Position numbers and translations under genes: made by a program
Notes under the pieces: model-generated
Told to the model about the DNA's origin: nothing
Database searches by the model: none
What the model saw: only the letters and a program-made list of their open reading frames with translations
DNA from: Minisyncoccota bacterium
GTDB taxonomy: Bacteria > Patescibacteriota > Minisyncoccia > Phycocordibacterales > Phycocordibacteraceae
Assembly (NCBI GenBank): GCA_035547315.1
Contig: DASZVH010000004.1
Span: forward strand, 12,107 to 76,106
DNA: 64,000 bases
Reading direction: 5' to 3'
In this document: positions 9,789 to 63,308 of the stretch, piece after piece
How the letters are laid out: each line of letters opens with the position of its first letter
How positions within the stretch are numbered: the first letter of the stretch is position 1

Positions 9789-9794
9789 TCGGAG

Positions 9795-9885
9795 CGGAAG
9801 GGGAGGGATTCGAACCCTCGATACGGCTATTACCCCGTATAGCGGATTAGCAATCCGCCGCTTTCAGCCACTCAGCCACCCTTCC
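9795..9885 (-). tRNA. tRNA-Ser (GCT)
   Basis: Cloverleaf with anticodon loop TTGCTAA, a long variable arm, T-loop TTCGAAT and discriminator G. CCA is not encoded. Confidence 0.8.
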
Positions 9886-26476: not shown

Positions 26477-26547
26477 AGCGGGGTAGAGTAATGGTAATTC
26501 GCGAGGCTCATAACCTCGAGATGCGGGTTCAAGTCCCGCCCCCGCAA
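26477..26547 (+). tRNA. tRNA-Met (CAT), initiator-like
   Basis: Anticodon loop CTCATAA. The 3' end ...CCCCGCAA and acceptor GCGGGG resemble bacterial tRNA-fMet, with an unpaired 1:72 position. Short D-arm. Boundaries are +/-1 nt. Confidence 0.55.
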
Positions 26548-26700
26548 CACGAGTGGACACCTTGAAAGTGTCCGGCCCCCTCAAAACTGGATGCGCCGCG
26601 CCGCTCTCCCTTTTCCCTACCTTGCTTTGCCCATCTACGCGATAGCATTGACGCACGTCATCTAGCGGTTGAATCCCTAGGCGGTGCTATACTTGCGGCT

Positions 26701-39096: not shown

Positions 39097-39170
39097 GTCG
39101 GGGTAGCTCAGTTGGTAAGAGCGTGGCATTCATAACGCCAAGGTCGTGGGTTCGACTCCCACCCTCGACA
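39097..39170 (+). tRNA. tRNA with CAT anticodon (elongator Met or Ile2)
   Basis: Cloverleaf: acceptor GTCGGGG/CCTCGAC, D-arm GCTCAGTTGGTAAGAGC, anticodon loop TTCATAA, T-loop TTCGACT. Overlaps a spurious track ORF. Confidence 0.7.
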
Positions 39171-39178
39171 CTGCAATT

Positions 39179-39363
39179 TTCCTCAGGATTTGGTAGGATG
39201 CGTTCACGCTTGCGGTAGTAAGCCCGCAGACGGGCTTGCTCCCGCTGCGTTCGGAAAAACCAGAAGCAAGCTTCTGATTTTCCTCACTTGCGGGAGTAAG
39301 TAGGCTTTCTCCCGCTGCGTTCGCTCGGAAAGAAAGAAAACGCCTTTCTTTCCTCACTCACTT
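39179..39363 (+). repeat. 2.5 tandem structured repeats, each ending in a copy of the tRNA-Asp 5' end
   Basis: Units are ~75 nt: CTCCCGCTGCGTTCG...(internal palindrome)...TTCCTCACT(CAC)TTGCGGGAGTA. The last unit runs directly into the tRNA-Asp acceptor stem. Confidence 0.6.
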
Positions 39364-39437
39364 GCGGGAGTAGCTCAATTGGTTAGAGCGCCGCCCTGTC
39401 ACGGCGGAGGTTGCGGGTTCAAGTCCCGTCTCTCGCG
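39364..39437 (+). tRNA. tRNA-Asp (GTC)
   Basis: Acceptor GCGGGAG, anticodon loop CTGTCAC, T-loop TTCAAGT and discriminator G. Confidence 0.85.
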
Positions 39438-39819
39438 CACCATAGGACGAATGGAGCGCAAAGCTTCATTTTGTCTTGCAGTTTCTTCGTTTATCTCCAG
39501 TTCTAACGAACGATACCGTTCTTCGATCGCGGGATAATCAGAAACCGTCTTCGTGTGCCAGTGCCTTTTCAATCAAGATTTTGACCCGCCGATCGTAATC
39601 CTTGGGAGGCTTCTTTTCCCGTCCAGTGGCTTGTCCGCGCATTACTGAGATTGTCTGTCATTCCTCGCCCTTAGGCAAACTCGCCCGGTTCGCGTAAAAA
39701 GCTAGCGCCAGCGCGAGTTTATGTTCAGGTCGCAGCTTTCCTCGACTTTTCGCCAAACTCGCGCCACCGACGAGCCGGTGCGACCTGGTGCGAGTAGGTT
39801 ACTGCACTGGTGCAGTAAA

Positions 39820-41137: not shown

Positions 41138-41210
41138 GCCGATGTAGCTCAGTTGGTAGAGCAGCTCCATGGTAAGGAGCAGGTCGCCAGTTCGATCCTG
41201 GCCATCGGCT
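41138..41210 (+). tRNA. tRNA-Thr (GGT)
   Basis: Anticodon loop ATGGTAA, T-loop TTCGATC and acceptor GCCGATG/CATCGGC. Confidence 0.85.
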
Positions 41211-41235
41211 CACGAGTAAGGTATAAAAATCGTAC

Positions 41236-41308
41236 GCCGGAGTAGCTCAGTTGGTAGAGCGAGGGTATCGTAAACCCTAGGTCGTCGGTTCAATCCCGAC
41301 CTCCGGCT
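41236..41308 (+). tRNA. tRNA-Thr (CGT)
   Basis: Anticodon loop ATCGTAA, T-loop TTCAATC and acceptor GCCGGAG/CTCCGGC. Confidence 0.85.
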
Positions 41309-41309
41309 C

Positions 41310-49846: not shown

Positions 49847-49920
49847 TGCCGGGTCGTCTAATGGTAGGACAACAGACTCTGGATCTGTTTATCTTGGTTC
49901 GAGTCCAAGCCCGGCAGCCA
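49847..49920 (+). tRNA. tRNA-Gln (CTG) with encoded CCA
   Basis: Acceptor TGCCGGG/CCCGGCA, anticodon loop CTCTGGA, T-loop TTCGAGT. Preceded by a 9 bp perfect palindrome (GCGCCACGC/GCGTGGCGC). Confidence 0.85.
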
Positions 49921-49994
49921 ATCAGGACATCGTACGGATGACCTAGAGGGGTCAATTCCTTTACTAAACCTTCTGGACATGTTTGCATTTAGCT

Positions 49995-51047
49995 ATGAAG
50001 GAGAAATCTCTGCCTAAACCGAATACGCAGGCCCTAAGTTGGTTTTATGGTGAGAGCAAGAAAGGGAATCTTATACTTGATCCCAAGTACCAAAGGAATC
50101 CGATTTGGTCCATTGGCCAGAAGTGTTTTCTGATAGATAGCTTGATTTCCGGGTCGCCCATTCCACAGGTCTTTATTAACATTAAAACAAAGACTGTTAG
50201 TAAAGTCCGACAAACCGACTATGAAGTAGTTGATGGACAACAACGGCTGCGCGCGATTTTGGAGTTCATGGAAGATCAGTACCCTTTAATCAAAACAACT
50301 GCCAAGTCCTACCCCGTTTCCGGCATCTATGCGCCACACATTGGCAAAAAATATTCCGAGTTACCCTCCGAATTACAGGATGCGATTTGGAACTATCCTC
50401 TTGCTGTTCAAGAGTTACGAGATTGGACGGATGTCGAAATAAGAGCCCTTTTTAGACGGCTCAATTATGTTGTAGAAAAATTGAACAAACAGGAATTACG
50501 CCACTCTCAGTACTTTGGTGAATTTGTTATTGCGGCAGAAGAGTTAAGCAAGGATCCTTTTTGGGATGAAATTGATTTCTTTTCCCGCCATGATTCGCAA
50601 CGAATGAAAGACGTGGAATTTGTTAGCGAGCTGCTCGTCCTTCTCATGGATGGCCCCCAAGAAGGGCAGTCTACTCTGGATAGATTTTATGCTGATTACG
50701 ATGTTCTTTTTCCGAAGAAAAAGAATTATCTGTCAAAATTTCATCAAACCCTCCGCTCCTTAAAATCAATAGAGACGTACCTGGCCAGCAGTCGCTTTGT
50801 AAAGAAAGCGGACTTTTACGCTCTATTTGGGGCTGTGTCGAGTTTAAATGAGCTTGTCAAACAAGCAGTCAACCTTTCTTACGCTGAGAACGAGCTAAGC
50901 AAATTTGAAAATCAACTTTCAAAATCTCCCGAAAGTCTGACGGGAAAAGTATTGAAATATTACAATACTGTCATCGAAGGTCCTGCAAAGAAAGCTAAAC
51001 GGGAAGAGCGCATCAAAATACTTTCAGGCTTGGTAGCTAAAGATTGA
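49995..51047 (+). CDS. DUF262 (ParB-like nuclease domain, DGQQR motif) protein
   Basis: YQRNPIWS...VVDGQQRLRAI signature of the DUF262/GmrSD N-terminal domain. ATG at 49995 (the track starts at TTG 49983). Confidence 0.75.
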   Translation: MKEKSLPKPNTQALSWFYGESKKGNLILDPKYQRNPIWSIGQKCFLIDSLISGSPIPQVFINIKTKTVSKVRQTDYEVVDGQQRLRAILEFMEDQYPLIKTTAKSYPVSGIYAPHIGKKYSELPSELQDAIWNYPLAVQELRDWTDVEIRALFRRLNYVVEKLNKQELRHSQYFGEFVIAAEELSKDPFWDEIDFFSRHDSQRMKDVEFVSELLVLLMDGPQEGQSTLDRFYADYDVLFPKKKNYLSKFHQTLRSLKSIETYLASSRFVKKADFYALFGAVSSLNELVKQAVNLSYAENELSKFENQLSKSPESLTGKVLKYYNTVIEGPAKKAKREERIKILSGLVAKD

Positions 51048-51742
51048 AATGGATGGCAACTACTACGGCAAAAAAAGTTGTCAACAAATTTACCAGCCGG
51101 CTCACTAAGGTTGGAGGATACTACGGCGAGCTGATATTAGCCGTTAACTTAAAGAGGCATCAGGCAGCTTTAGAGACTATGTTGGCTGAACAGTTCGTAT
51201 TCAATATTGTGGTGTTTTGGGAGGTGTTTCTTAACGAACTTCTGCTCACTTATCTTGTTGCGTCTCCAAAAAGGTTTCTTTCCAATCTCAAAGACAGGAT
51301 GGGCCAGTCTGTAAAAGAGCGATATGGAGGCGGGGCTGCCCAAATGCTCAAATTTAATTCTCCTAGATCAATCTCACTGGCAAAGGCCGCTGCACTTGCT
51401 GACCCAAAAGATTTTAATCTAACCGCAGAGTCTGCTGATCAGCTTACGAAACGAGCCAATGACTTGCTCGAAGCGAAATTCGCTAAACCCTTTACCCTAG
51501 ATCCCGATGATGCTCAATTTTTGGATTATTTGGTTTGTCTTAGAAATTTTCTTGCACACAGAAGTACATCTTCTAGAAATAAATTGAGAATAGCAGTGTC
51601 TGCACTCCAAAATTCGAACAACGATCTGAACGGCTCCATTTCAAACATAGGAACTTATCTGAAGACCACTAACACGTCAAACAAGACCCGAGCCTTGATA
51701 ATTTCAGAGCGTATGGTCCAAATAGCAAATAAGCTGGTTTAA
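51044..51742 (+). CDS. HEPN-like protein (RNxxAH motif)
   Basis: LVCLRNFLAHRS fits the Rx4-6H HEPN motif. ATGA overlap with the DUF262 gene. Confidence 0.45.
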   Translation: MKWMATTTAKKVVNKFTSRLTKVGGYYGELILAVNLKRHQAALETMLAEQFVFNIVVFWEVFLNELLLTYLVASPKRFLSNLKDRMGQSVKERYGGGAAQMLKFNSPRSISLAKAAALADPKDFNLTAESADQLTKRANDLLEAKFAKPFTLDPDDAQFLDYLVCLRNFLAHRSTSSRNKLRIAVSALQNSNNDLNGSISNIGTYLKTTNTSNKTRALIISERMVQIANKLV

Positions 51743-53079
51743 GAGTCCAGTATGACTTTTTTGTTTATGAGTGTAAGCCGGCTTCTAAATGACTGCATTA
51801 ACTCTCGCTTCTCCTCCAGTGAACCCTCCTTAAGAAGGTACTTCGCATAAGATCGTAAATCTGTTTTGCTCTGAGCATCGATTTGGTCTGCGCCGATGCC
51901 GAGCACTTTATTGCGGAAGTGATTGAAGCGCCCCATTTCTTTCTCAAGCTTCTGTTTAATGCCGAGAGTATTGAGATCCAACTTATCCACGATCTCTAAA
52001 AGCTGAGCAATCAACTCTTCTTCCCGTAGGTATGTGTTCTTGCAATTCTTGTCATAGAACCTCGTGCAGCCGTAGTAGATATACTTTGCTGTAGTCCCAT
52101 CCGCCAGACCCTTGAACTTCTCTTCAGCTGTTACACCGGAATTGCACAATCCGCATTTCATCAAGCGTGTGAAGGCGAATTCTTTGTACATCTGGCCATG
52201 TGGTTTGTGCGAGTCCAATTTTTCCTGAACCTTCTTGTAAAGTTCTTGGCTGATCAAAGGCTCGTGCCGGCCCACGTACCACTTGCCACTTTTCTTTGGG
52301 TACTCAATGAGACCACAGTAGAACGGGTTACGTAAGACCGTATGGATATTGCTCAACGAGAAGGGCTTCCCATTTCGAGTTTGAAACTTCACCTCGTCCT
52401 TTAACCACCGAAAGAGGCGTCTGCCACTCCACTTTTCGTAGGCAACCTTTTCGAACATCAATCGGATAATGTGAGCCCGCTGCGGATCGAGAACAACGTG
52501 GCATTTCATTGTTCGATCCGGATGGTTGATATAGCCAGTGGGCGCTACGCTCGGCCATAGGCCCATTTCGATGCGGGTGCGGAGACCGCGCTTCACGTTC
52601 ATGCTCTTGTTGTCGTTCTCGAGCTTCGCTTGCGAGCACAGGATCATCAGCAAGAATTTCTCACTGGGATTGTTTGTAAATTTCTGGCCGTATGTCCTCA
52701 CCTCAACTAGTTTTTTCTGGTCCATCAAGTCAACGATCGAGCCAAGATCGCCGGCGTTTCTTGAAAGGCGATCCGGATGCCATGCGAGTATGGCGTTGAA
52801 CTTGCCCTCCTTCAGTTCACGGATAAGCTCATTAAAAACTGGTCGTTGGGCAGTGTCCTTGGCCGAGTGAGATTCGCGCTTTATTTCGCTCACAGTCAAC
52901 CCGTCTCTCTGGGCGAGAGTCAGCATCTCTTTTATTTGGGAGTCTATCGAGAGTGCCTGCTTTTCGTCGGATTCGGTCGATTTTCGTGCATACAGGCAGT
53001 ATTTAAGGGGAACGACCTCTACAGGCGCTTGGGCGCCCGTTTGGCCTGCGTATAGTCCCACTTCCGGCATACAGCACAC
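51739..53079 (-). CDS. large serine recombinase (resolvase N-domain + recombinase domain + Zn ribbon)
   Basis: YARKSTESDEKQALSIDSQ catalytic region, DRLSRN motif and a C-terminal CGLCNSG...YYGC...C zinc ribbon. Exact start uncertain. Confidence 0.85.
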   Translation of the reverse strand: MCCMPEVGLYAGQTGAQAPVEVVPLKYCLYARKSTESDEKQALSIDSQIKEMLTLAQRDGLTVSEIKRESHSAKDTAQRPVFNELIRELKEGKFNAILAWHPDRLSRNAGDLGSIVDLMDQKKLVEVRTYGQKFTNNPSEKFLLMILCSQAKLENDNKSMNVKRGLRTRIEMGLWPSVAPTGYINHPDRTMKCHVVLDPQRAHIIRLMFEKVAYEKWSGRRLFRWLKDEVKFQTRNGKPFSLSNIHTVLRNPFYCGLIEYPKKSGKWYVGRHEPLISQELYKKVQEKLDSHKPHGQMYKEFAFTRLMKCGLCNSGVTAEEKFKGLADGTTAKYIYYGCTRFYDKNCKNTYLREEELIAQLLEIVDKLDLNTLGIKQKLEKEMGRFNHFRNKVLGIGADQIDAQSKTDLRSYAKYLLKEGSLEEKRELMQSFRSRLTLINKKVILDS

Positions 53080-53185
53080 ATACAGCCCGGAAGCCGTTCA
53101 GAAGTCTAGTGCCCTGAAAGGGGATAACTACACCCCACTTATCTCGCAATAGCCATAGAGACCGATTTGCGATAGTCTTGGATTA

Positions 53186-54049
53186 ATGCCTAAGAAGAAA
53201 AGGACTAGGAGACTGCGTGGAAGTGATTTCTTGATGAGATGGTCTCAGGGAGCATGGAGCGAGGACCAACTCGTGGATGCAGTAAACGCGACCCAAAAGT
53301 TTTTTGCGTTGCCGTATGGTCCTAGCGGTACAGCGCCAGACGATGATCCGGTGGCCTATGAGAAATACTTTGAAAGATTAGACGCAGCCGGTCTTGGTTC
53401 GATCAAGCGACCAGACCTCCTTATTTTCCCGGAGTCGGCTCGCAGCAAGGTTAATAGTATGGTTGAGCCTCTTGGTGGTGTCGCGGAACTGCCTTTTCAC
53501 ACGGAAGATGAGGAGCACATAAAAGCACTCCTTTCTTTGGCAATCATGGCAGTCGAATGCGAGAACAGCTTATGGAAGGCGAAACAGATGCCGAACTACA
53601 CCTACACCCTCAAGCCACAGAAGAGGCTTGGAGGTAAGCCCGGTTTAGCTAAAAATGCAGTGCTTCCTACGATCATCATGAAAGACGAGGATAGAGGCCC
53701 GCTCACAGAATGGCAAAAACGAAATCCGAAACTCCCGCTCCATATTTGGCATGCGTTTTTTGACGAAGCATACGGCATTTCGTTTGCCGATATGAATCGG
53801 CTTATTGACGATGGGACCATCGAGCCTTCTGTTCAAGAGTTTTCAAACGCAGGACAGCCCTCGACAAAGAAAACTCTATACAAAGCGCATTATTACCTTG
53901 GCTATCCGCTCGCGACCTCAACGCAGGACCCGGCGCTAAAAGCTCAAACTATAGTGGATAAGAATGGCCACATTTACCCTTACGTTACCTTCTCTGGAGG
54001 CAAGATGGCTCTCCGGGATGATGCTGTGAGGGTTTTGGAGAGTCTGTAG
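53186..54049 (+). CDS. hypothetical protein, candidate restriction endonuclease
   Basis: 287 aa with no family match. Lies 20 nt upstream of, and co-oriented with, the methyltransferase. Contains PD...E.K-like residues (RPDLLIFPE...ECENSLWKAK). Confidence 0.3.
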   Translation: MPKKKRTRRLRGSDFLMRWSQGAWSEDQLVDAVNATQKFFALPYGPSGTAPDDDPVAYEKYFERLDAAGLGSIKRPDLLIFPESARSKVNSMVEPLGGVAELPFHTEDEEHIKALLSLAIMAVECENSLWKAKQMPNYTYTLKPQKRLGGKPGLAKNAVLPTIIMKDEDRGPLTEWQKRNPKLPLHIWHAFFDEAYGISFADMNRLIDDGTIEPSVQEFSNAGQPSTKKTLYKAHYYLGYPLATSTQDPALKAQTIVDKNGHIYPYVTFSGGKMALRDDAVRVLESL

Positions 54050-54069
54050 GAGGAAGGTAAAATAAAGGG

Positions 54070-55566
54070 GTGAAAACCCGAGAACAATTAAGAGAGAAGG
54101 GACAATTCTGGACGCCGAACTGGATAGCTCAGAGCATGGTTAGTTATGCTTTGGGGAATGGCTCGAATCAACTTTTTGATCCCGCTCATGGGCTTGGTGC
54201 GTTTTTTGTCGCAGCAAAGGAACTGAGCAAGAAGTTTAAAAGAAGAATAACCTTCTTTGGTACTGACATAGACTCTGATCTAGTGTCTGAAATTAAAGAA
54301 CAAGGGATTCTTGAAGCCAAGGATTTAAAGAATCTACGAGTTGCTGACTTTGTAGATATTGCTTCCCAAAAGAAATACAAGTCCATAGTCGTAAATCCTC
54401 CATATATCCGCCATCACCGCATTCCTCTTGAAAAGAAACTGGCTCTGAAGAGAATCGCTCTACAACATCTTGGTCGTGAATTAGATGGCAGAGCAGGCCT
54501 CCATGTGTACTTTTTAATACTAAGTCTACTTGCACTTGAAAAAGACGGAAGGTTATCTTTCATTGTTTCCTCTGATATATGCGAAGGGGTATTTGCGAAT
54601 CCACTTTGGCAGTGGATCGGAAAGAACTATCAAATAGAAGCAGTTCTGACTTTCAGTGGTAAAGCTAGTCCATTTCCGGGTGTAGATACAAACCCAATTA
54701 TTTTCTTCATTAGAAACGCAAAACCAAAAGCAGTTCTTTCGTGGGCTCGAGCGAATGGAATAAATCCCGAGTCTATCAATAAATGGGTTGATTCTGGTTT
54801 TAAAACATCTCTAGCGGATGGATCAGATTTATTAGTGTTTGAACGTTCACTGAATGAGGCGCTTACCACGGGCCTTTCTCGACTTCCACAGACCGAAGAA
54901 CACAAATTCACTCTAGGAGATTTTGTGTATGCGATGCGAGGCATTGCTACTGGGAATAATGAATTCTTTTTGCTGGATCAAGAGACCGTTGATAGATTCG
55001 GAATTCCTCAAACGTATTTAGTTCCAGCAATTGCTCGAACACGAGATGTCGCAGGAGATATGGTTGATGAGTCTACTTTTACAGCTATTGTCGAAAAAGG
55101 AAGACCACATTACCTACTTTATATTGATGCTGACAGCCTAGATGGCCTTCCAAAACCGATAAGAAATTATATTGCCCACGGAGAAGAACTTGGAGTACAC
55201 AAGACCGCACTAATCTCTGCCCGAAGGGTCTGGTTCAAAATGGAAAAAAGAAATCCACCGCCGATCCTTTTTGCCTACTTAGGAAGGAGAAGTTCAAGAT
55301 TTATCGTCAACAAAGCCGGAGCGCTGCCTCTCAATGGTTTTCTCTGCATCTATCCTAAGGACACTGAAGCATCATACTTAAATAAACTAATACAGATAAT
55401 TAATCGCGAAGAGGTATTAAAGAACCTGTTCCTGGTCGGCAAATCATACGGATCCGATGCAGTAAAAGTAGAGCCTCGTGCGATAGAGCGATTGCCCATT
55501 CCGGAGAAGCTTCTCAAGGAAGTAGGACTTATACCCCCTAGGAAGGGTCAGCTAGCTTTAGTTTGA
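54070..55566 (+). CDS. N6-adenine DNA methyltransferase (gamma-class, Eco57I/TaqI-like) with C-terminal target-recognition domain
   Basis: GQFWTP N-terminus, motif I FDPAHGLGAFF and motif IV VVNPPY. 498 aa. Confidence 0.8.
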   Translation: MKTREQLREKGQFWTPNWIAQSMVSYALGNGSNQLFDPAHGLGAFFVAAKELSKKFKRRITFFGTDIDSDLVSEIKEQGILEAKDLKNLRVADFVDIASQKKYKSIVVNPPYIRHHRIPLEKKLALKRIALQHLGRELDGRAGLHVYFLILSLLALEKDGRLSFIVSSDICEGVFANPLWQWIGKNYQIEAVLTFSGKASPFPGVDTNPIIFFIRNAKPKAVLSWARANGINPESINKWVDSGFKTSLADGSDLLVFERSLNEALTTGLSRLPQTEEHKFTLGDFVYAMRGIATGNNEFFLLDQETVDRFGIPQTYLVPAIARTRDVAGDMVDESTFTAIVEKGRPHYLLYIDADSLDGLPKPIRNYIAHGEELGVHKTALISARRVWFKMEKRNPPPILFAYLGRRSSRFIVNKAGALPLNGFLCIYPKDTEASYLNKLIQIINREEVLKNLFLVGKSYGSDAVKVEPRAIERLPIPEKLLKEVGLIPPRKGQLALV

Positions 55567-55567
55567 T

Positions 55568-55822
55568 TTAGAGAAAATAGCCAACGCTTTTACTGTAGAG
55601 CTTTGCGAGTTTATTGAGCCAGATGGCCTCTACTCGCAATTCTCCAAGTTCGATTTTTGAAACCCAGGACTGGGAGCACCCGAGCTTTTCAGCCACCTCT
55701 GCCTGTGTCAGCCCGGCTTCTATCCGAGCTTTCTTTAGCCGCTTCACAAACCCAGCTCGTTCATCGGTATGAATAGATTTCTTCATACCTATAAGGCTGT
55801 ATTCCGTTATGGGATATTCCAA
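55568..55822 (-). CDS. XRE-family helix-turn-helix transcriptional regulator
   Basis: LTQAEVAEKLGCSQSWVSKIELGE Cro/C1-type HTH. Could be the controller of the adjacent restriction-modification genes or the island repressor. Confidence 0.7.
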   Translation of the reverse strand: MEYPITEYSLIGMKKSIHTDERAGFVKRLKKARIEAGLTQAEVAEKLGCSQSWVSKIELGELRVEAIWLNKLAKLYSKSVGYFL

Positions 55823-55937
55823 AGTGGAATATTTATGCTACGATAGGGCCACTTAGTCCATAAGGGGACAACCGACTACGAGGAAGTCCAGGACGAAGGT
55901 AAGTTATAGAAGTTTTATTTATAAGATAACGAAATAT

Positions 55938-56228
55938 ATGGCTCGTAAACCAAAGCCTCAGTGCCCAAATTGTAAGCAGTACAGGTTGGACGAAAAGCGT
56001 GGTATCTGGCTGCTACTCGCATCAGGGTGCTTTTTCGGTCCGCTCATGGTCGCCAGTGTCTTGTTTATTACAATCATCGGTATCCCGATTGCCTTGTTCT
56101 TTCTGGGTCTCTACATCATCACGATCCCACTCGGCATTATTGCTATAATCGTGGCGTTTCGTACTCACGGCTACCGGTGTAGAAATTGCCACTGGGTTGG
56201 CGATAACCCAATCATTGAATCGGCATGA
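55938..56228 (+). CDS. small membrane protein with split zinc ribbon (CPNC ... CRNC)
   Basis: 96 aa with two TM helices flanked by CxxC pairs. Confidence 0.4.
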   Translation: MARKPKPQCPNCKQYRLDEKRGIWLLLASGCFFGPLMVASVLFITIIGIPIALFFLGLYIITIPLGIIAIIVAFRTHGYRCRNCHWVGDNPIIESA

Positions 56229-56340
56229 GGCATGGCAATTCTGTCGTCACAAAGCGCTCGTGAGCTTCAAAGAATAATCAAAGAGGCTACGGAGCGCGAT
56301 GTGTCGCTCGGAGAAGCCTATGCGATTTGGGGATACCTAA

Positions 56341-57060
56341 TCAAACTCCTGCAGTTGTTGTGGAAGGTAGAACACCGCGATGAGGTACCCATACCGCCAC
56401 AACAGATGTCATTGTTTGGTCGGTTCGGAAACGCAAGTGCGGATCACAGGAGTCGTAAAAGATATTCTCGGAGTTAGGGATAGAGAATGCTTCTTTGGTT
56501 TTGCCTTCTCGATCCCATCGTTCTTTAAATTCAAGCAAGGTCTCTTCTGGGTCCGTGGGATGTTCGAGTTCGTGCATTTCTTTCAGCTCCCTATTTTCAT
56601 TCTTGACTTTAGCAAGCAGGTCAACGATATCTCTGAGGTGGAAAAGGCCCTCGGTTTGTTCCGGTTCAGGAAGATTGAGTACCAGAAAACGGATATCGTT
56701 CGGGTGAAGAAGGAGCCGAGGTTTCTCAACCTCCTGTTCTTTTGGAAAATTATGAAAATACTGCAGCCACAACTTCTGGCTTGCCGAATTACCTTGCACC
56801 GCACTACGCAAAATACTTTCAATTACGAAGCTGGTCTTTTCGAAAGCCCACTCTTTTCGTAAGGCTGTCACGCGAGACTGGAAGTCGGAGCGTTTTTTCC
56901 AGGCAGTTGGCGTGTTAATGCTGATTCCGTAGTATTCAGAAAATTGCTGCTGGGTTTCAATCCCGAGCCGGTGACGCTCGGAAGGGGGCATGGAGGTCCA
57001 GAGGATAAACTCCTCATAGACGCCATCTTTTTTCACACCTCGATTTTCACGGTTGTTCAT
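56341..57060 (-). CDS. hypothetical phage-like protein (N-terminal HTH, terminase-small-subunit-like)
   Basis: ETQQQFSEYYGISINTPTAWKKR resembles terS/Nu1-type HTH segments. 239 aa, low GC. Confidence 0.3.
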   Translation of the reverse strand: MNNRENRGVKKDGVYEEFILWTSMPPSERHRLGIETQQQFSEYYGISINTPTAWKKRSDFQSRVTALRKEWAFEKTSFVIESILRSAVQGNSASQKLWLQYFHNFPKEQEVEKPRLLLHPNDIRFLVLNLPEPEQTEGLFHLRDIVDLLAKVKNENRELKEMHELEHPTDPEETLLEFKERWDREGKTKEAFSIPNSENIFYDSCDPHLRFRTDQTMTSVVAVWVPHRGVLPSTTTAGV

Positions 57061-57169
57061 GGTTGTGATCTGCTTAATCCCTTGAGAATCGCTTGGGATT
57101 AAGCGGTATCTTCAATATTACTCCCGGAAATACCTGTTGTGAGGCCCTCTCTCTGTGGACCAACGAAAA

Positions 57170-57360
57170 CCCGACCTAGACGGGTCGAGATCTTGGTCGG
57201 ATAGGCGGTAGAATAGCCTTACGACACCTCACATTACTTCGCACCGAACCAAAGTAGCCAGCAGTCTAGAAAAGTATCGAAGGACCTATACGGGTCAATA
57301 AATAAGCCATCGCGAAAATTAGTTCGAGATTTCTAGACCCATACCCGTCTAGGAAATCGA
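57170..57360. repeat. iteron-like repeats: three copies of GACCTA(G/T)ACGGGTC (one inverted) plus three TCTAGA palindromes
   Basis: Approximate positions 57172-57189, 57283-57296 and 57336-57353. Lies in the 350 nt non-coding region of the island. Coordinates +/-2 nt. Confidence 0.5.
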
Positions 57361-57378
57361 ACTTCTAGAAAATGTGTA

Positions 57379-57409
57379 AAGGGCCGACCCGGTTGGATCG
57401 GCCCTTTGC
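57379..57409 (-). terminator. rho-independent terminator after the 57413-57760 gene
   Basis: AAGGGCCGAcccggttggaTCGGCCCTTT. On the minus strand a T-rich tract (tttacacatttt) follows. Confidence 0.6.
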
Positions 57410-58174: not shown

Positions 58175-58726
58175 ATGAAAAAAGCTCTCCTTTCTTTTGG
58201 ACTCATTCTCGTATCAGGGGCATACGCCCTCTATCATGCAATGGGTGGCGCGGCAACAAATCCCGCTGTCACAGTACCCCCCGTGACATCTTCGCAGGTT
58301 CAGCCCATAACTATTACCAATACTTCTTCGCCAGCCGCCCCTCCACCACAAAACGCTACAGAAACGCCGATTCAAACGACCCAGACGGCTACACCTCCGC
58401 CGTCGGCCCCCACTCCGCAACCGCTCTCGGTACCCAAAGGTCAATATGCTGATGGTACGTACACCGGCAGCCCCGCCGACGCGTACTACGGCACCGTCGA
58501 AGTGCAAGCCGTTGTCTCGGGCGGCAAGCTTGCCGATGTTACTTTCCTTCAATACCCGAGCGACCGGAGCACGAGCCGCTATATCAATAGCCAAGCGATG
58601 CCACTCCTTATGCAGGAAGCCATTGCCGCGCAAAGCGCGAACGTGAGCGGCGTCTCGGGCGCGAGTGATACGAGCGCAGCGTTCCGCGAATCGCTCGCGA
58701 GTGCACTCGCACAGGCAAAAAACTAA
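58175..58726 (+). CDS. secreted FMN-binding domain protein (flavinylation substrate)
   Basis: Signal peptide, a Pro/Thr-rich linker and a C-terminal FMN_bind-like domain. It has VSGVSGASDTS, resembling the [S/T]GA[S/T] flavinylation motif. Confidence 0.6.
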   Translation: MKKALLSFGLILVSGAYALYHAMGGAATNPAVTVPPVTSSQVQPITITNTSSPAAPPPQNATETPIQTTQTATPPPSAPTPQPLSVPKGQYADGTYTGSPADAYYGTVEVQAVVSGGKLADVTFLQYPSDRSTSRYINSQAMPLLMQEAIAAQSANVSGVSGASDTSAAFRESLASALAQAKN

Positions 58727-58727
58727 C

Positions 58728-59468
58728 ATGCGTATCGAACGAATTATCATGGGCATGCCAGCGGCGATCGAACTCGTTGGTGCCGATTCTCGAGAACCGC
58801 ACGACCGCATCTTCGCGTTATGGGACGCGATCGATGTACGATTTAGCACCTACAAGCCCGAGAGCGAGACGAGCCGCATCAACCGCGGCGAGATTAACGA
58901 ACGCGATTATAGTCCCGAGATGCAGGAGATTATTGCTCTTACCGAAAAGACAAAGCGGGAGACGAATGGATACTTCGATGCGCGCCCCCATGACGGTTCG
59001 TTCGATCCCTCTGGCGTTGTGAAAGGATGGGCGCTTCGCGAGGCAGCGCACCGCGCAGAGGAACTTGGCTTTGATTCCTTCTATGTCGAAATCGGCGGCG
59101 ACATTCAAACTCGCGGCAAGGATGCGGCAGGACGAGATTGGACAATTGGCATTCGCAACCCATTCAACTATGATGAGATCGTTAAGGTGCTCTGTCCGCG
59201 CGGCGCGGGCATCGCCACCTCGGGAAACGCTGCGCGTGGCGCGCATATCTACAATCCGCACGATTCGAAAGTCGCACCCGCAGAACTGGCAAGCATAACC
59301 GTCCTCGGTCCAGACATCTTCGAGGCCGATCGTTTCGCAACCGCGGCGTTCGCAATGGGTGAGAAGGGCATCTATTTTATTGAAAGCATGGACAGTTTCG
59401 AGGCGTACGCAATTGCCCCAAGTGGTGTTGCCACGATGACTTCCGGGCTCTTCCGTTATCTTGCATGA
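58728..59468 (+). CDS. apbE: FAD:protein FMN transferase ApbE
   Basis: ApbE-family signature along its length (GAIEL..., GGD, DSFEAYA...). 246 aa. Confidence 0.8.
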   Translation: MRIERIIMGMPAAIELVGADSREPHDRIFALWDAIDVRFSTYKPESETSRINRGEINERDYSPEMQEIIALTEKTKRETNGYFDARPHDGSFDPSGVVKGWALREAAHRAEELGFDSFYVEIGGDIQTRGKDAAGRDWTIGIRNPFNYDEIVKVLCPRGAGIATSGNAARGAHIYNPHDSKVAPAELASITVLGPDIFEADRFATAAFAMGEKGIYFIESMDSFEAYAIAPSGVATMTSGLFRYLA

Positions 59469-60949
59469 TTCGTTTCGTCGACGACATCTTGAATAAGATC
59501 ACGATGTACCGCTTGGTGCTCTACTACCTTGCGGCGCTCGCACTCCTCGCGTTCATACTTGGACTCTTCGGAATTGTCCCTGTCGATCCCACTGCGCTCG
59601 CGTTTTCAATACTCCTCGTGACGATCGTGTGTTTGGCGACGAACTGGGTCTTTGCGCGCGTTTTTTCTGCGGAAACCAACATCGAATCGGCATACATAAC
59701 AGCCCTCATCCTTGTTCTCATTGTGCCGCCGGCCACCGCGGGCAATGTGGCGGGTGTCGGCCTTCTCGTCTTCGTCTCGGTCTGGGCGATGGCATCCAAA
59801 TACATTTTTGCGATCGGCAAAAAGCACGTCTTCAATCCTGCAGCGATCGCGATCGCGATCGCTGCGCTCGCGCTCAACCAGCCCGCGACCTGGTGGGTGG
59901 GCGGCAATCTTTGGCTCGCGCCCGTCGTTATCCTCGGTGGCCTGCTTGTCGTGCGCAAGATTCAGCGCTTTGATCTCGTCCTCTCCTTTATGGCGGTCGC
60001 GATTGTTGCAACCCTTGCAACCGCCCCTTCCGCCGACTATGGGGGCCTGCTCTCGCAGACACTTCTGCATTCCTCATTCTTTTTCCTCGCGTTCGTGATG
60101 CTAACCGAGCCACTTACTACGCCGCCCAATCGCTTGCTCCGCATGGCATACGGCACATTAGTTGGGCTACTTTTTGCACCAAATATCCACCTCGGCTCCT
60201 TCTACCTTACGCCTGAGCTCGCGCTCCTCGCTGGCAACATTTTCTCCTACGCCGTGAGCCCGAAGGGCCGCTACACACTCACGTTGGTTCGGGTTGAGCA
60301 AGCCGCGCGCGATGCGTACGATTTCGTGTTTACCCCTGATCGTGCTTTTACCTTCAAGCCCGGTCAATACATGGAATGGACGCTTAGTCATAAATATCCG
60401 GACGACCGCGGTAATCGGCGGTATTTCACGCTCGCCTCCTCGCCGACTGCTTCTGAAGTCCGTCTCGGCGTGAAGTTCTACAACCCCTCGAGCACGTTTA
60501 AGCGTGCCCTTGCCGCACTCACCGAAAGCAAAACAATCTCTGTGTCGCACCTCGCGGGCGGTTTCGTGCTCCCGCGTAAGAAAGAGACCAAGCTTGTTTT
60601 CATCGCGGGTGGGATCGGCATAACGCCCTTTCGCAGCATGATCGAATACCTCCTCGACTCACGCGAACGGCGGGACATCGTGCTTCTCTATTCGAACAAA
60701 GCCGAAGCCGATATAGCCTACAAACCGCTTCTCGATCGCGCACGGGCAGAACTTGGTATCCGAACCGTTTATGTGACCGGTACACCAATCGACGCAGCAC
60801 TCATTGCCTGCGAAATACCCGACTACCGCAATCGCTCGTTCTATATCTCGGGACCGCATGGGATGGTGGAGACATTCAAGGCCGCGCTGCGTCGTATGGG
60901 CGTGTCGTGGTTTAGAATAAAGAGTGATTTCTTCCCGGGCTTCGCCTAA
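59465..60949 (+). CDS. membrane oxidoreductase: NqrB/RnfD-like polytopic N-domain fused to an FNR-like FAD/NAD(P)-binding domain
   Basis: KHVFNPAAIA (NqrB/RnfD HxFNPA motif). The C-terminal domain has RRYFTLASSP (RxYS FAD site) and LVFIAGGIGITPFRSM (NAD site). ATGA overlap with apbE. Confidence 0.6.
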   Translation: MIRFVDDILNKITMYRLVLYYLAALALLAFILGLFGIVPVDPTALAFSILLVTIVCLATNWVFARVFSAETNIESAYITALILVLIVPPATAGNVAGVGLLVFVSVWAMASKYIFAIGKKHVFNPAAIAIAIAALALNQPATWWVGGNLWLAPVVILGGLLVVRKIQRFDLVLSFMAVAIVATLATAPSADYGGLLSQTLLHSSFFFLAFVMLTEPLTTPPNRLLRMAYGTLVGLLFAPNIHLGSFYLTPELALLAGNIFSYAVSPKGRYTLTLVRVEQAARDAYDFVFTPDRAFTFKPGQYMEWTLSHKYPDDRGNRRYFTLASSPTASEVRLGVKFYNPSSTFKRALAALTESKTISVSHLAGGFVLPRKKETKLVFIAGGIGITPFRSMIEYLLDSRERRDIVLLYSNKAEADIAYKPLLDRARAELGIRTVYVTGTPIDAALIACEIPDYRNRSFYISGPHGMVETFKAALRRMGVSWFRIKSDFFPGFA

Positions 60950-60953
60950 TGCT

Positions 60954-61535
60954 ATGAGCACCTACGAAAAAGTCGCAACTGCCATCATTGTCATCCTCGT
61001 CGCTATCGGCGTTGCCTTCTCCTATCACGAAATTACCGAGCCGCATGAAAATAACGGCGGCCCAGACTTTGACCACAGCATCGGCCAGAATTTCGAAATC
61101 GGACCCTTCGACACCATCTTGAGCCGTCGATCCTCGGGCGGTATCGAACAGAATTGCGCGCCATTGCAGTCAGTGATCCTCGGAGCACTGCATGATGTAA
61201 AAGAAAAGCTCGAGGCCGCAGGCACGTATCAGCGAAGCGCGGATGTTTTCGAGGTCAATCAAGACACGTTGCAATTCTTCTGCAATGCGCAAGCAGAGGT
61301 GACACTCATTGATGACACTGGAACGAAACTCGTGCTTGATAAGCCGCCCTTTACGCGCGGCATTCCAGCGGGCGGTACAGCTACGGACGTAGGCACTGAG
61401 GTGCGTATCGACGCGACAATTGTGCGTCCCGGGACCGTACCACCAACCATGCCGACAGTTTCCGTTGAAGAACTCATTCCAGATCGGTATCTCGAAGGGG
61501 CAGTATCGTCGAGTACCGAAGTGATTGGGGAGTGA
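60954..61535 (+). CDS. hypothetical membrane-anchored protein
   Basis: One N-terminal TM helix and a ~170 aa extracytoplasmic domain. No motif recognised. Confidence 0.35.
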   Translation: MSTYEKVATAIIVILVAIGVAFSYHEITEPHENNGGPDFDHSIGQNFEIGPFDTILSRRSSGGIEQNCAPLQSVILGALHDVKEKLEAAGTYQRSADVFEVNQDTLQFFCNAQAEVTLIDDTGTKLVLDKPPFTRGIPAGGTATDVGTEVRIDATIVRPGTVPPTMPTVSVEELIPDRYLEGAVSSSTEVIGE

Positions 61536-62071: not shown

Positions 62072-62240
62072 GGAATATCGGCGCGGGCATCGCGATCGGG
62101 GTAGCGATAGGCGTCGCACTCGACGCCGGCGTGGCAAGGCGCCAGTAGCCGTTCTGAGCAAGGCTTAGCCTTGCTCAGGAAGAGGTCGGAGAAGATGCCG
62201 GGAATCGGCGGTGAAGGGGAGGCGGCGCTATACTGATGGC

Positions 62241-63308
62241 ATGCAATTCCTCGCTTCGCTTTTTGCCGGCATCGCGGCGCTTGTCGGTTCTTGGTTCTCT
62301 CGCCCGGCGCCGCAGGCGCCCGTCGCGGTGCCGGCACCGCAAGAAGCGCCGGCGAGCACGAGCACGGAAGCGGGCGCGAAGACGAACGCACCGGGGAGCG
62401 CGGCGCCCGCAGCGGGCGCCGCGTCCTCGACCCCGGCACCGGCAGCCGACGCGCTCCCCGCGGGCTCCGCCTGGCTCTCCGCGCTGCCGCTCGGGGATTA
62501 TCAGTATTCGACGAGCGGCCCCGCGGCGGGGAAGGTCTATCTCTGCCACATCGCTACCGGCGGCGGCGGCGCAAAGGGCAGCGCGAGCTGGATCTCGGGC
62601 GAGGAGTGGTACCCCGCCGAGAAAGTCGCGGTCGAGGGCGCGGCCTCCTGGCCGGACGCCTCCTACCATATGAGCATCTCCGGCTCGACCCGCACGATCA
62701 CGAGCAACGGCGAGCCGACCGACCATGCGACCGGCATCTTCCCGATACGGAAGTCCGACCCCGCGTACCAATTCGACGCGAACCCGAACACGATCACGCC
62801 GCAGAGCTACGACTTCTCCTTCCCGGCATACCCCTCCTTCGCCAGTTCGCCGCAGTGCATCTTCGGGGAGGTCGGCATCATGAACGACGGCGTGCCGCTC
62901 TTCGACGGCTTCGACGCCGAGTATCGCGACGCGCTCGCGCACGAGACCCAGGACGCATGGGAGGGGCACCCGGACGAGAGCGGCGTCTACCACAATCACG
63001 GCTTCGAGGCCGGGCCGGTCAAGGAGCCGGTCTCCACCGTGGTCGGCTTCGCCTTCGACGGGTTCCCCATCACGGGCTCGCTCCTCCCGAGCGGCGCATA
63101 CCTCCACACCGCCGACCTCGACGAGTGCCACGGCCTCACCTCGACCATCACCCTCGACGGCAAAGAGGTTACGACCTACCACTACGTGCTCACGCAGGAT
63201 TTCCCCTACTCCGTCTCCTGCTTCCGCGGCGCTTCCCATGAGCCCAAGCCGGGAGGCGGGCAAGAGGGCGCGCAGCAGCGCCCCGGGCAGCCCCCGCCGC
63301 CGCGGTAG
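62241..63308 (+). CDS. secreted YHYH-domain protein
   Basis: Signal/anchor MQFLASLFAGIAALVG, an Ala/Pro-rich linker and a C-terminal ...TTYHYVLTQDFPYSVSCFRG (YHYH motif). A TATACT hexamer lies 6 nt upstream of the ATG. Confidence 0.55.
   Translation: MQFLASLFAGIAALVGSWFSRPAPQAPVAVPAPQEAPASTSTEAGAKTNAPGSAAPAAGAASSTPAPAADALPAGSAWLSALPLGDYQYSTSGPAAGKVYLCHIATGGGGAKGSASWISGEEWYPAEKVAVEGAASWPDASYHMSISGSTRTITSNGEPTDHATGIFPIRKSDPAYQFDANPNTITPQSYDFSFPAYPSFASSPQCIFGEVGIMNDGVPLFDGFDAEYRDALAHETQDAWEGHPDESGVYHNHGFEAGPVKEPVSTVVGFAFDGFPITGSLLPSGAYLHTADLDECHGLTSTITLDGKEVTTYHYVLTQDFPYSVSCFRGASHEPKPGGGQEGAQQRPGQPPPPR

Follow-up and report, generated by a model that had tools for sequence, protein, structure and literature searches.

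An FMN_bind, ApbE and NqrB/RnfD-like-FNR gene cassette in a Patescibacteria contig, a likely member of the NQR/RNF-like electron-transfer system

Gene content and conservation of the cassette

The 64-kb stretch of contig DASZVH010000004.1 analysed here (hereafter, the window) carries, at positions 58175-60949, three tightly packed genes on the + strand encoding an FMN_bind protein, an ApbE and an NqrB/RnfD-like-FNR fusion. The trio had been recognized at this position in a first-pass annotation of the same DNA, and all three open reading frames (ORFs) are indeed present there. A single nucleotide separates the stop codon of the FMN_bind gene from the ATG at 58728 with which ApbE begins, and the start of the fusion overlaps the ApbE stop by four nucleotides (ATGA); the packing of the trio is thus operon-like. 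A GTG codon at 58665 was considered as an alternative ApbE start that might supply a signal peptide, and was rejected on the grounds that it would add a hydrophilic stretch running across the end of the FMN_bind gene, and that homologues often have stop codons just upstream of ApbE. The parts of the cassette are as follows.

58175-58726, + strand: putative NqrC/RnfG-like flavinylation client, a membrane-anchored FMN_bind protein of 183 amino acids (Pfam PF04205)
58646-58666, + strand: predicted flavinylation motif S-G-V-S-G-A-S of the client (residues 158-164), aligned with DAVSGAT of 8p2a
58728-59468, + strand: ApbE-type FAD:protein FMN transferase, short form, 246 amino acids (Pfam PF02424)
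59465-60949, + strand: NqrB/RnfD-like-FNR fusion, 494 amino acids (PF03116 and PF00175)
59465-60259, + strand: NqrB/RnfD-like membrane domain of the fusion, residues 1-265, ten predicted helices
60260-60949, + strand: FNR-type FAD/NAD(P)H-binding domain of the fusion, residues ~266-494, assigned from motifs and models

At least 589 genome stretches in a collection holding one genome per species encode a relative of the fusion, and the fusion family comprises 696 clusters at 50% identity (E <= 1e-30). Hundreds of fusion homologues from Patescibacteria, at 60-79% identity, share many invariant positions. Gene neighbourhoods were compared in the best 80 of these at least 589 stretches. In 75 of the 80 loci the gene just upstream of the fusion is an FMN_bind gene, and in 71 an ApbE is found within 6 kb of the fusion. 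A lack of co-conservation had been named in the first-pass annotation as refuting its proposal; the three genes are clearly co-conserved. Most loci display the order FMN_bind-ApbE-fusion seen in the window, an order that recurs in Patescibacteria, Alphaproteobacteria, Chloroflexia and Actinomycetota. By taxonomic label, the sample divides as follows.

Named Patescibacteria (Paceibacterota, Saccharibacteria, Peregrinibacteria, Microgenomates and others): 40 of 80 loci
Alphaproteobacteria (Mesorhizobium, Kaistia, Devosia, Methylocapsa and others): 22 of 80 loci
Chloroflexia: 3 of 80 loci
Actinomycetota: 2 of 80 loci
Gammaproteobacteria: 1 of 80 loci
Unclassified: 12 of 80 loci

Both the fusion and its gene setting match a class described earlier. 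Méheust 2021 (eLife 10:e66878, PMC8238504) defined as the "NQR/RNF-like system" a fusion of PF03116 with PF00175 encoded in a flavinylation-associated gene cluster, reported it for the most part from Actinobacteria and the candidate phyla radiation (CPR), and proposed that it transfers electrons unidirectionally from NAD(P)H to extracytosolic acceptors. In the window, likewise, one protein harbors an N-terminal PF03116 and a C-terminal PF00175 domain, and FMN_bind and ApbE are found immediately upstream of it. We consider it likely that the cassette is a member of this bioinformatically defined, flavinylation-associated transmembrane electron-transfer system and operates by the mechanism proposed for it. 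The class itself is already published and known in CPR, and is not new. The first-pass annotation had held the module to be unexpected in a reduced genome and its fusion architecture to be unusual. Neither view can be maintained: the published system was reported primarily from Actinobacteria and CPR and is abundant in the collection searched here, and the fusion is its defining feature.

An RNF or NQR complex has six subunits, of which only two have homologues here; this, together with the missing region around the flavinylated Thr of RsxD (see below), might be taken to mean that the cassette is a functionless, decaying remnant of an RNF or NQR operon. The ORFs are, however, intact and tightly coupled, the level of identity and the many invariant positions are maintained across many Patescibacteria, and the three-gene order recurs across phyla in a family of several hundred clusters. 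These conservation data effectively refute the idea of a remnant.

The FMN_bind client, ApbE and the site of flavinylation

The client starts with MKK and a hydrophobic anchor (residues ~1-24), followed by a Pro/Thr/Ser-rich linker of ~65 residues (~25-90) and by the FMN_bind domain (~95-180), which is matched by Pfam PF04205 at residues 104-178 with 23.9 bits. The N-terminal helix that MKK precedes reaches a Kyte-Doolittle 15-residue mean of 2.03, and the succession of MKK, anchor and Pro/Thr-rich linker is as expected for a domain that would lie outside the cell. The client domain aligns with the covalent-FMN domain of PDB entry 8p2a (E 1.5e-12), and because SGVSGAS falls opposite DAVSGAT in this alignment, Ser164 is the predicted acceptor of flavin mononucleotide (FMN). 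The motif of ApbE clients is D-x-x-[S/T]-G-A-[S/T], the acceptor being the last residue (PMC12052999). The core of this motif, SGAS, is present in the window client, with Ser replacing Asp at position 1; in one client that was tested, a D-to-A change at that position had no more than minor effects (PMC12052999). All 76 partner FMN_bind proteins (those of the 75 loci plus that of the window) harbor [ST]GA[ST], in the form of SGAT in 59, SGAS in 13, TGAT in three and TGAS in one. For the secreted FMN_bind client with an SGAS/T-type site proposed in the first-pass annotation, the N-terminal anchor and linker fit a location outside the cell, and the acceptor motif is present.

The anchor helix is itself conserved, with the pattern K-K-x-x-L-S-(9 residues)-Y being recognizable in 63 of the 76 partners and its Ser and its Tyr each being kept in 60 of these 63. 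Such conservation argues for a retained membrane anchor rather than for a generic cleaved signal, and the helix appears compatible with packing against a partner subunit. N-termini resembling cleavable signal peptides were found in some alphaproteobacterial homologues of the client (loci L028, L034 and L037).

The product of the second gene is matched by Pfam PF02424 with 129 bits, and its motifs ATSG (TSG at residues 164-166), HIYNP (173-177) and EADRFAT (199-205) align with those of solved ApbEs. Judged from these alignments, the window ApbE keeps the conserved FAD, Mg2+ and catalytic-His motifs of the family. It is short: in the alignments with ApbEs of the PDB, ~55 residues of the Escherichia coli enzyme have no aligned counterpart. 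An N-terminal lipoprotein signal or signal peptide is typical of the ApbE family, albeit not universal. Neither a signal peptide nor a lipobox was found on the ApbE of the window or on that of any of the 71 related loci with ApbE (71/71). Across the window and these 71 loci, the N-terminus reads M-[KR]-x-T-[RK]-I-x-M-G-M, which is the first strand of the ApbE fold; since the protein begins at this strand, there is no room for a signal peptide. In many of the related loci, moreover, an in-frame stop codon lies one to seven codons upstream of ApbE. Where the client is flavinylated, given an ApbE that never carries an export signal, is a fresh question arising from this analysis; searching the text of Méheust 2021 (PMC8238504) and of Huang 2024 (bioRxiv 10.1101/2024.03.13.584918, PMC10979944) turned up no treatment of the localisation of ApbE.

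One answer would be that the C-terminal motif of the client is flavinylated in the cytoplasm, before or during Sec-dependent export, the electron path remaining the same as in the published system. The N-terminus of ApbE and the upstream stop codons fit with this scenario, as do clients that seem to carry export or anchor signals and the position of Ser164, 20 residues from the client C-terminus. ApbE is known to accept unstructured seven-residue tags, those at protein termini working best, and Klebsiella has cytoplasmic ApbEs (PMC12052999), making flavinylation prior to export chemically conceivable. Against it, no precedent was found for the Sec export of a pre-flavinylated chain, a review reports that a cytosolic ApbE was unable to replace the periplasmic one in Salmonella, and a second, exported ApbE could be encoded elsewhere in these genomes, the search having covered the window and 6-kb flanks. 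On balance, we regard cytoplasmic pre-flavinylation as possible but doubtful. If true, it would provide a self-contained extracytosolic flavoprotein system dispensing with both FAD export and an exported transferase, and such economy would explain the spread of the cassette in minimal-genome Patescibacteria.

The finding that no ApbE of any cassette examined carries a signal peptide, along with the existence of known cytoplasmic ApbE-client pairs, would also suit a system facing the cytoplasm as a whole, in which the FMN_bind domain would remain inside, receive its FMN from the cytoplasmic ApbE and form, together with the FNR domain, a membrane-associated cytoplasmic reductase, in the manner of the ApbE-dependent cytoplasmic fumarate reductase of Klebsiella. 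The client argues otherwise, as its N-terminus, which is short and positively charged and leads into a hydrophobic helix, points to an N-in/C-out orientation, its Pro/Thr/Ser-rich linker is long, and the alphaproteobacterial homologues from the three loci named above display signal-peptide-like N-termini. In solved NQR/Rnf complexes, furthermore, both the subunit that binds FMN and the FMN pocket of NqrB/RnfD lie at the outer face (PMC10979944), and it is at this face that the client is docked in the published multimer model. A system turned entirely inward is therefore, in our estimation, very improbable.

The fusion protein and the proposed electron path

The fusion is matched by the Pfam models NQR2_RnfD_RnfE (PF03116, 40.7 bits) and NAD_binding_1 (PF00175, 41.6 bits), and FNR-type models of NCBIfam span its residues ~270-490. 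Comparison of the two parts of the protein with known proteins yielded the following matches, each given with its value.

C-terminal half, flavohaemoglobin FAD/NAD module: 27.5
C-terminal half, NqrF (7qty): 25.0
C-terminal half, dehydrogenase domain of SpNOX: 23.8
N-terminal 265 residues, RnfD (8ahx_D, 242 residues aligned): 21.9
N-terminal 265 residues, NqrB (7xk3_B): 21.2
N-terminal 265 residues, RnfD (7zc6_D): 21.0

The sequence harbors HVFNPA at residues 121-126, RYFT at 319-322, GGIGITP at 382-388 and a conserved C-terminal DFFPGF. The HxFNPA and GGIGITP motifs had thus been read correctly in the first-pass annotation, whereas the motif given there as RxYS is in fact R-x-F-T. Within the membrane domain, HxFNPA (121-126), WW (143-144) and TEPLTTPP (214-221) are invariant or nearly so. 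A protein from a "Candidatus Paceibacterota" metagenome-assembled genome (MAG) that is 100% identical to the window fusion bears the name "RnfABCDGE type electron transport complex subunit D" at NCBI. This name is misleading, because the protein is an FNR fusion and the window holds no further detectable Rnf or Nqr subunit; a tblastn search of its 64 kb with the E. coli queries RsxA, B, C, E and G gave no significant match.

Hydropathy indicates ten helices in the membrane domain, with both ends inside (N-in/C-in). The Lys and Arg residues of this domain all map to the N-terminus or to alternate, inside loops (R3/K11/R16, R65, K112/K119/K120, R164/K165/R168, R223/R226 and K267/R269) and, by the positive-inside rule, the protein is therefore predicted to be N-in/C-in and its FNR domain to be cytoplasmic, in agreement with the initial proposal.

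ApbE had further been described as flanked by two likely flavinylation clients. This description stands for the FMN_bind protein, in which the motif is kept, but not for the NqrB-like domain. The fusion sequence contains no [ST]GA[ST] motif. Between the FNPA helix and the "GGVWLLWQK" helix, E. coli RsxD has a stretch of ~107 residues that includes the flavinylated Thr187 in "GISQATPLD", and the equivalent stretch of the window fusion counts ~32 residues ("...NQPATWWVGGN..."). From the residue count between these shared motifs, ~75 residues are therefore missing, the SQAT segment with Thr187 among them. T142 in the conserved outer-loop "PATWW", the sole hydroxyl residue to come into question there, was examined as a cryptic counterpart of the RnfD/NqrB Thr and rejected, as the position is not consistently Ser or Thr and its context is no flavinylation motif. 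In 148 family representatives at 50% identity, this column holds Ser in 74, Thr in 31, Ile in 17 and Gly, Val, Leu or others in the rest, being non-hydroxyl in ~29%, next to an essentially invariant WW; variability of this kind does not fit a required acceptor. Judged by eye, the most plausible counterpart of "PATWW" in RsxD is "MTSW", with which the FNPA helix ends, rather than SQAT187. When the family was compared to RsxD using hhalign, the C-terminal half of the membrane domain alone was aligned (87% probability). The NqrB-like domain is thus not a likely ApbE client, and the membrane domain itself appears not to be flavinylated, in line with the report that the B/D-like subunit of the NQR/RNF-like family has lost its flavinylation site (Huang 2024, PMC10979944).

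In the mechanism that we favor, ApbE would use FAD to attach FMN via a phosphoester bond to Ser164 of the client, as suggested by the motif and the conserved gene order. The motifs and fold of the cytoplasmic FNR domain suggest that, with FAD bound, it would oxidise NAD(P)H. Electrons would next cross the membrane via the NqrB/RnfD-like domain, probably by way of a non-covalent flavin in the riboflavin/FMN sites of NqrB, a step to which both homology and the AlphaFold-multimer model of a Ktedonobacter homologue point. In Na+-NQR, this path returns electrons from the outer FMNs to the cytoplasmic side (the FMN-to-riboflavin leg), and the cassette would use the reverse. The covalent FMN of the outer subunit would then be reduced and would hand the electrons on to an extracytosolic acceptor, for which Fe(III), a redox protein and a soluble flavin or quinone are examples. 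Huang 2024, from whom the AlphaFold-multimer model of the Ktedonobacter complex originates, suggested that the C/G-like subunit lets its covalently bound FMN sample the flavin pocket of its B/D-like partner (PMC10979944). The passage of electrons from NAD(P)H to an extracytosolic flavoprotein, as it had been proposed from the window sequence, has the same direction as the published model (PMC8238504, PMC10979944).

Several points weigh against this interpretation. We infer the electron donor, the direction of transfer, the cofactors of the membrane domain and the acceptor alike, and the topology of the fusion was derived from hydropathy and charge. Position 1 of the flavinylation motif is Ser instead of the usual Asp in the window client and in its three closest relatives, and a signal-less ApbE sits awkwardly with a client flavinylated outside the cell. 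No conserved gene for a terminal acceptor was found in the 80 neighbourhoods, in subsets of which regulators and metal-homeostasis genes recur. Finally, a literature search for later work yielded no biochemical study of the NQR/RNF-like system.

NqrB/RnfD is a component of complexes that translocate ions, and the two-subunit complex might likewise couple its electron flow to the movement of Na+ or H+, which would turn the cassette into a minimal redox-driven ion pump. The partner subunits NqrD/E and RnfA/E are absent from the window, however, and the published view is one of simple unidirectional transfer. We consider this speculative addition unlikely; if true, it would mean membrane energisation for a bacterium lacking a respiratory chain. 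If the published model of outward transfer is right, the cassette would offer bacteria devoid of a respiratory chain a two-protein route for sending NAD(P)H reducing power outward, with possible uses in iron reduction or uptake, redox balancing during fermentation and interaction with host cells.

Genomic neighbourhood and comparison with known systems

Two further genes lie downstream of the cassette.

60954-61535, + strand: ORF of 193 amino acids with an N-terminal membrane anchor, no Pfam match
62211-63308: YHYH protein of 365 amino acids with a hydrophobic N-terminus, an Ala/Pro-rich linker and a YHYH domain (PF14240, 61.7 bits)

The 193-residue ORF starts four nucleotides past the fusion stop and is probably co-transcribed with the cassette. 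It is found downstream of the cassette in three of the 80 loci, which are the three closest relatives (L002-L004) and in which the four-gene block recurs, and has 10 homologues in a collection of 5.8 billion proteins. Such a distribution led us to reject it as a conserved partner or acceptor; it is lineage-specific and outside the conserved core, and may be a lineage-specific accessory or acceptor. The YHYH protein, located 0.7 kb downstream in the high-GC core, was likewise rejected as a conserved partner or acceptor, as it is present in none of the related loci. The neighbours that recur among the 80 loci are the following.

OmpR-type response regulator with histidine kinase: ~23 loci
ECF sigma factor: 15 loci, mostly Patescibacteria or unclassified
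PepSY: 12 loci
P-type ATPase: 7 loci
VIT1: 6 loci
Cytochrome b561: 6 loci

None of the regulators, PepSY, ATPase, VIT1 or b561 genes was seen in the annotated part of the window. Alphaproteobacterial cassettes are flanked by an OmpR-type response regulator, a histidine kinase and a small PepSY protein at loci L013, L017, L019-L021, L024, L025, L027, L033, L037, L040 and L060, and subsets of these loci additionally harbor VIT1, cytochrome b561 or a P-type ATPase. The recurrent neighbours hint at a role in envelope or metal (iron) homeostasis in some lineages and at a regulated metal or envelope-redox function in Alphaproteobacteria; a link to metal or iron had been suggested earlier from VIT1 by Méheust 2021 (PMC8238504).

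The cassette sits beside a stretch of distinct base composition. The G+C content (GC) of the flanking core is 0.64-0.69, and ~7.5 kb of low GC (0.41-0.51) directly follow a tRNA-Gln gene (49847-49920). The region from 57.4 to 61.8 kb, which comprises the cassette and the 193-residue ORF, has a GC of 0.53-0.58, and the GC is back to 0.69 from ~62 kb. An overall GC of ~0.6-0.7, as in the window, seems high for a Paceibacterota MAG. The genes of the low-GC stretch are as follows.

49983-51047: GmrSD-type nuclease
51739-53079, - strand: large serine recombinase
53186-54049: AccI-like restriction endonuclease
54070-55566: Eco57I/N6-type methyltransferase
55568-55822, - strand: XRE-type helix-turn-helix protein

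Positions 49847-57400 look like an integrated defence or mobile island. An att-bounded island that would include the cassette was considered and rejected, as no att-like repeat of the tRNA-Gln 3' end was found to bound one. The intermediate GC of the cassette suggests that its own acquisition may have been lateral, and both the four-gene block of the closest relatives and the alphaproteobacterial fusion homologues, 51-59% identical to the window protein, are compatible with lateral movement. The window harbors seven tRNA genes in total, including tandem tRNA-Thr genes (GGT, CGT) and a tRNA-Met/tRNA-Asp pair, with tRNA coordinates at 41138-41309, 39097-39438, 26477-26548 and 9794-9885.

Four known systems invite comparison. 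The NOX, FRE and SpNOX enzymes are built on a six-helix, di-haem ferric-reductase membrane domain that is unrelated to the ten-helix NqrB/RnfD fold of the cassette, which presumably uses flavins where NOX uses haems. Extracellular electron transfer (EET) in Listeria follows the same logic as the cassette, with cytoplasmic NADH, a membrane step and an FMN_bind protein flavinylated by ApbE on the outside. Unlike the cassette, whose client is anchored by a helix and whose ApbE lacks an export signal, Listeria employs lipoproteins as client and transferase (PplA and FmnB), and its membrane step is the quinone pool rather than an NqrB-like domain. Of the Listeria components (Ndh2, EetA, EetB, DmkA/B for demethylmenaquinone, FmnB and PplA), equivalents identified in the cassette are ApbE and the FMN_bind protein, no search having been aimed at the Listeria proteins. 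The likeness to flavin-based EET drawn in the first-pass annotation is therefore sound as a functional analogy only.

Compared to Na+-NQR and Rnf, which consist of six polypeptides, the cassette encodes two, and is devoid of the iron centre of NqrD/E or RnfA/E, of NqrA and of RnfB/C. Its NqrF-like domain has no 2Fe-2S ferredoxin domain and forms a single polypeptide with the B/D-like domain, to which it is joined directly. Whereas in Na+-NQR and Rnf a Thr of the D/B subunit carries FMN covalently, the cassette is missing both the motif and the stretch around it, and the semicircular electron flow of the larger complexes is presumably replaced by a one-way, outward one.

It is with the NQR/RNF-like system that the cassette agrees. 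The fusion stands beside an FMN_bind (NqrC/RnfG-like) gene and apbE in both, and in both the flavinylated Thr of NqrB/RnfD is not conserved. The window departs from it in having Ser in place of Thr as the acceptor and Ser in place of Asp at the first position of the motif, neither of which is essential. A text search of Méheust 2021 and Huang 2024 did not turn up the alphaproteobacterial occurrence, as in Mesorhizobium, Kaistia and Devosia. The cassette, recovered in the first-pass annotation from sequence alone, is thus a confirmation of a known system rather than a discovery.

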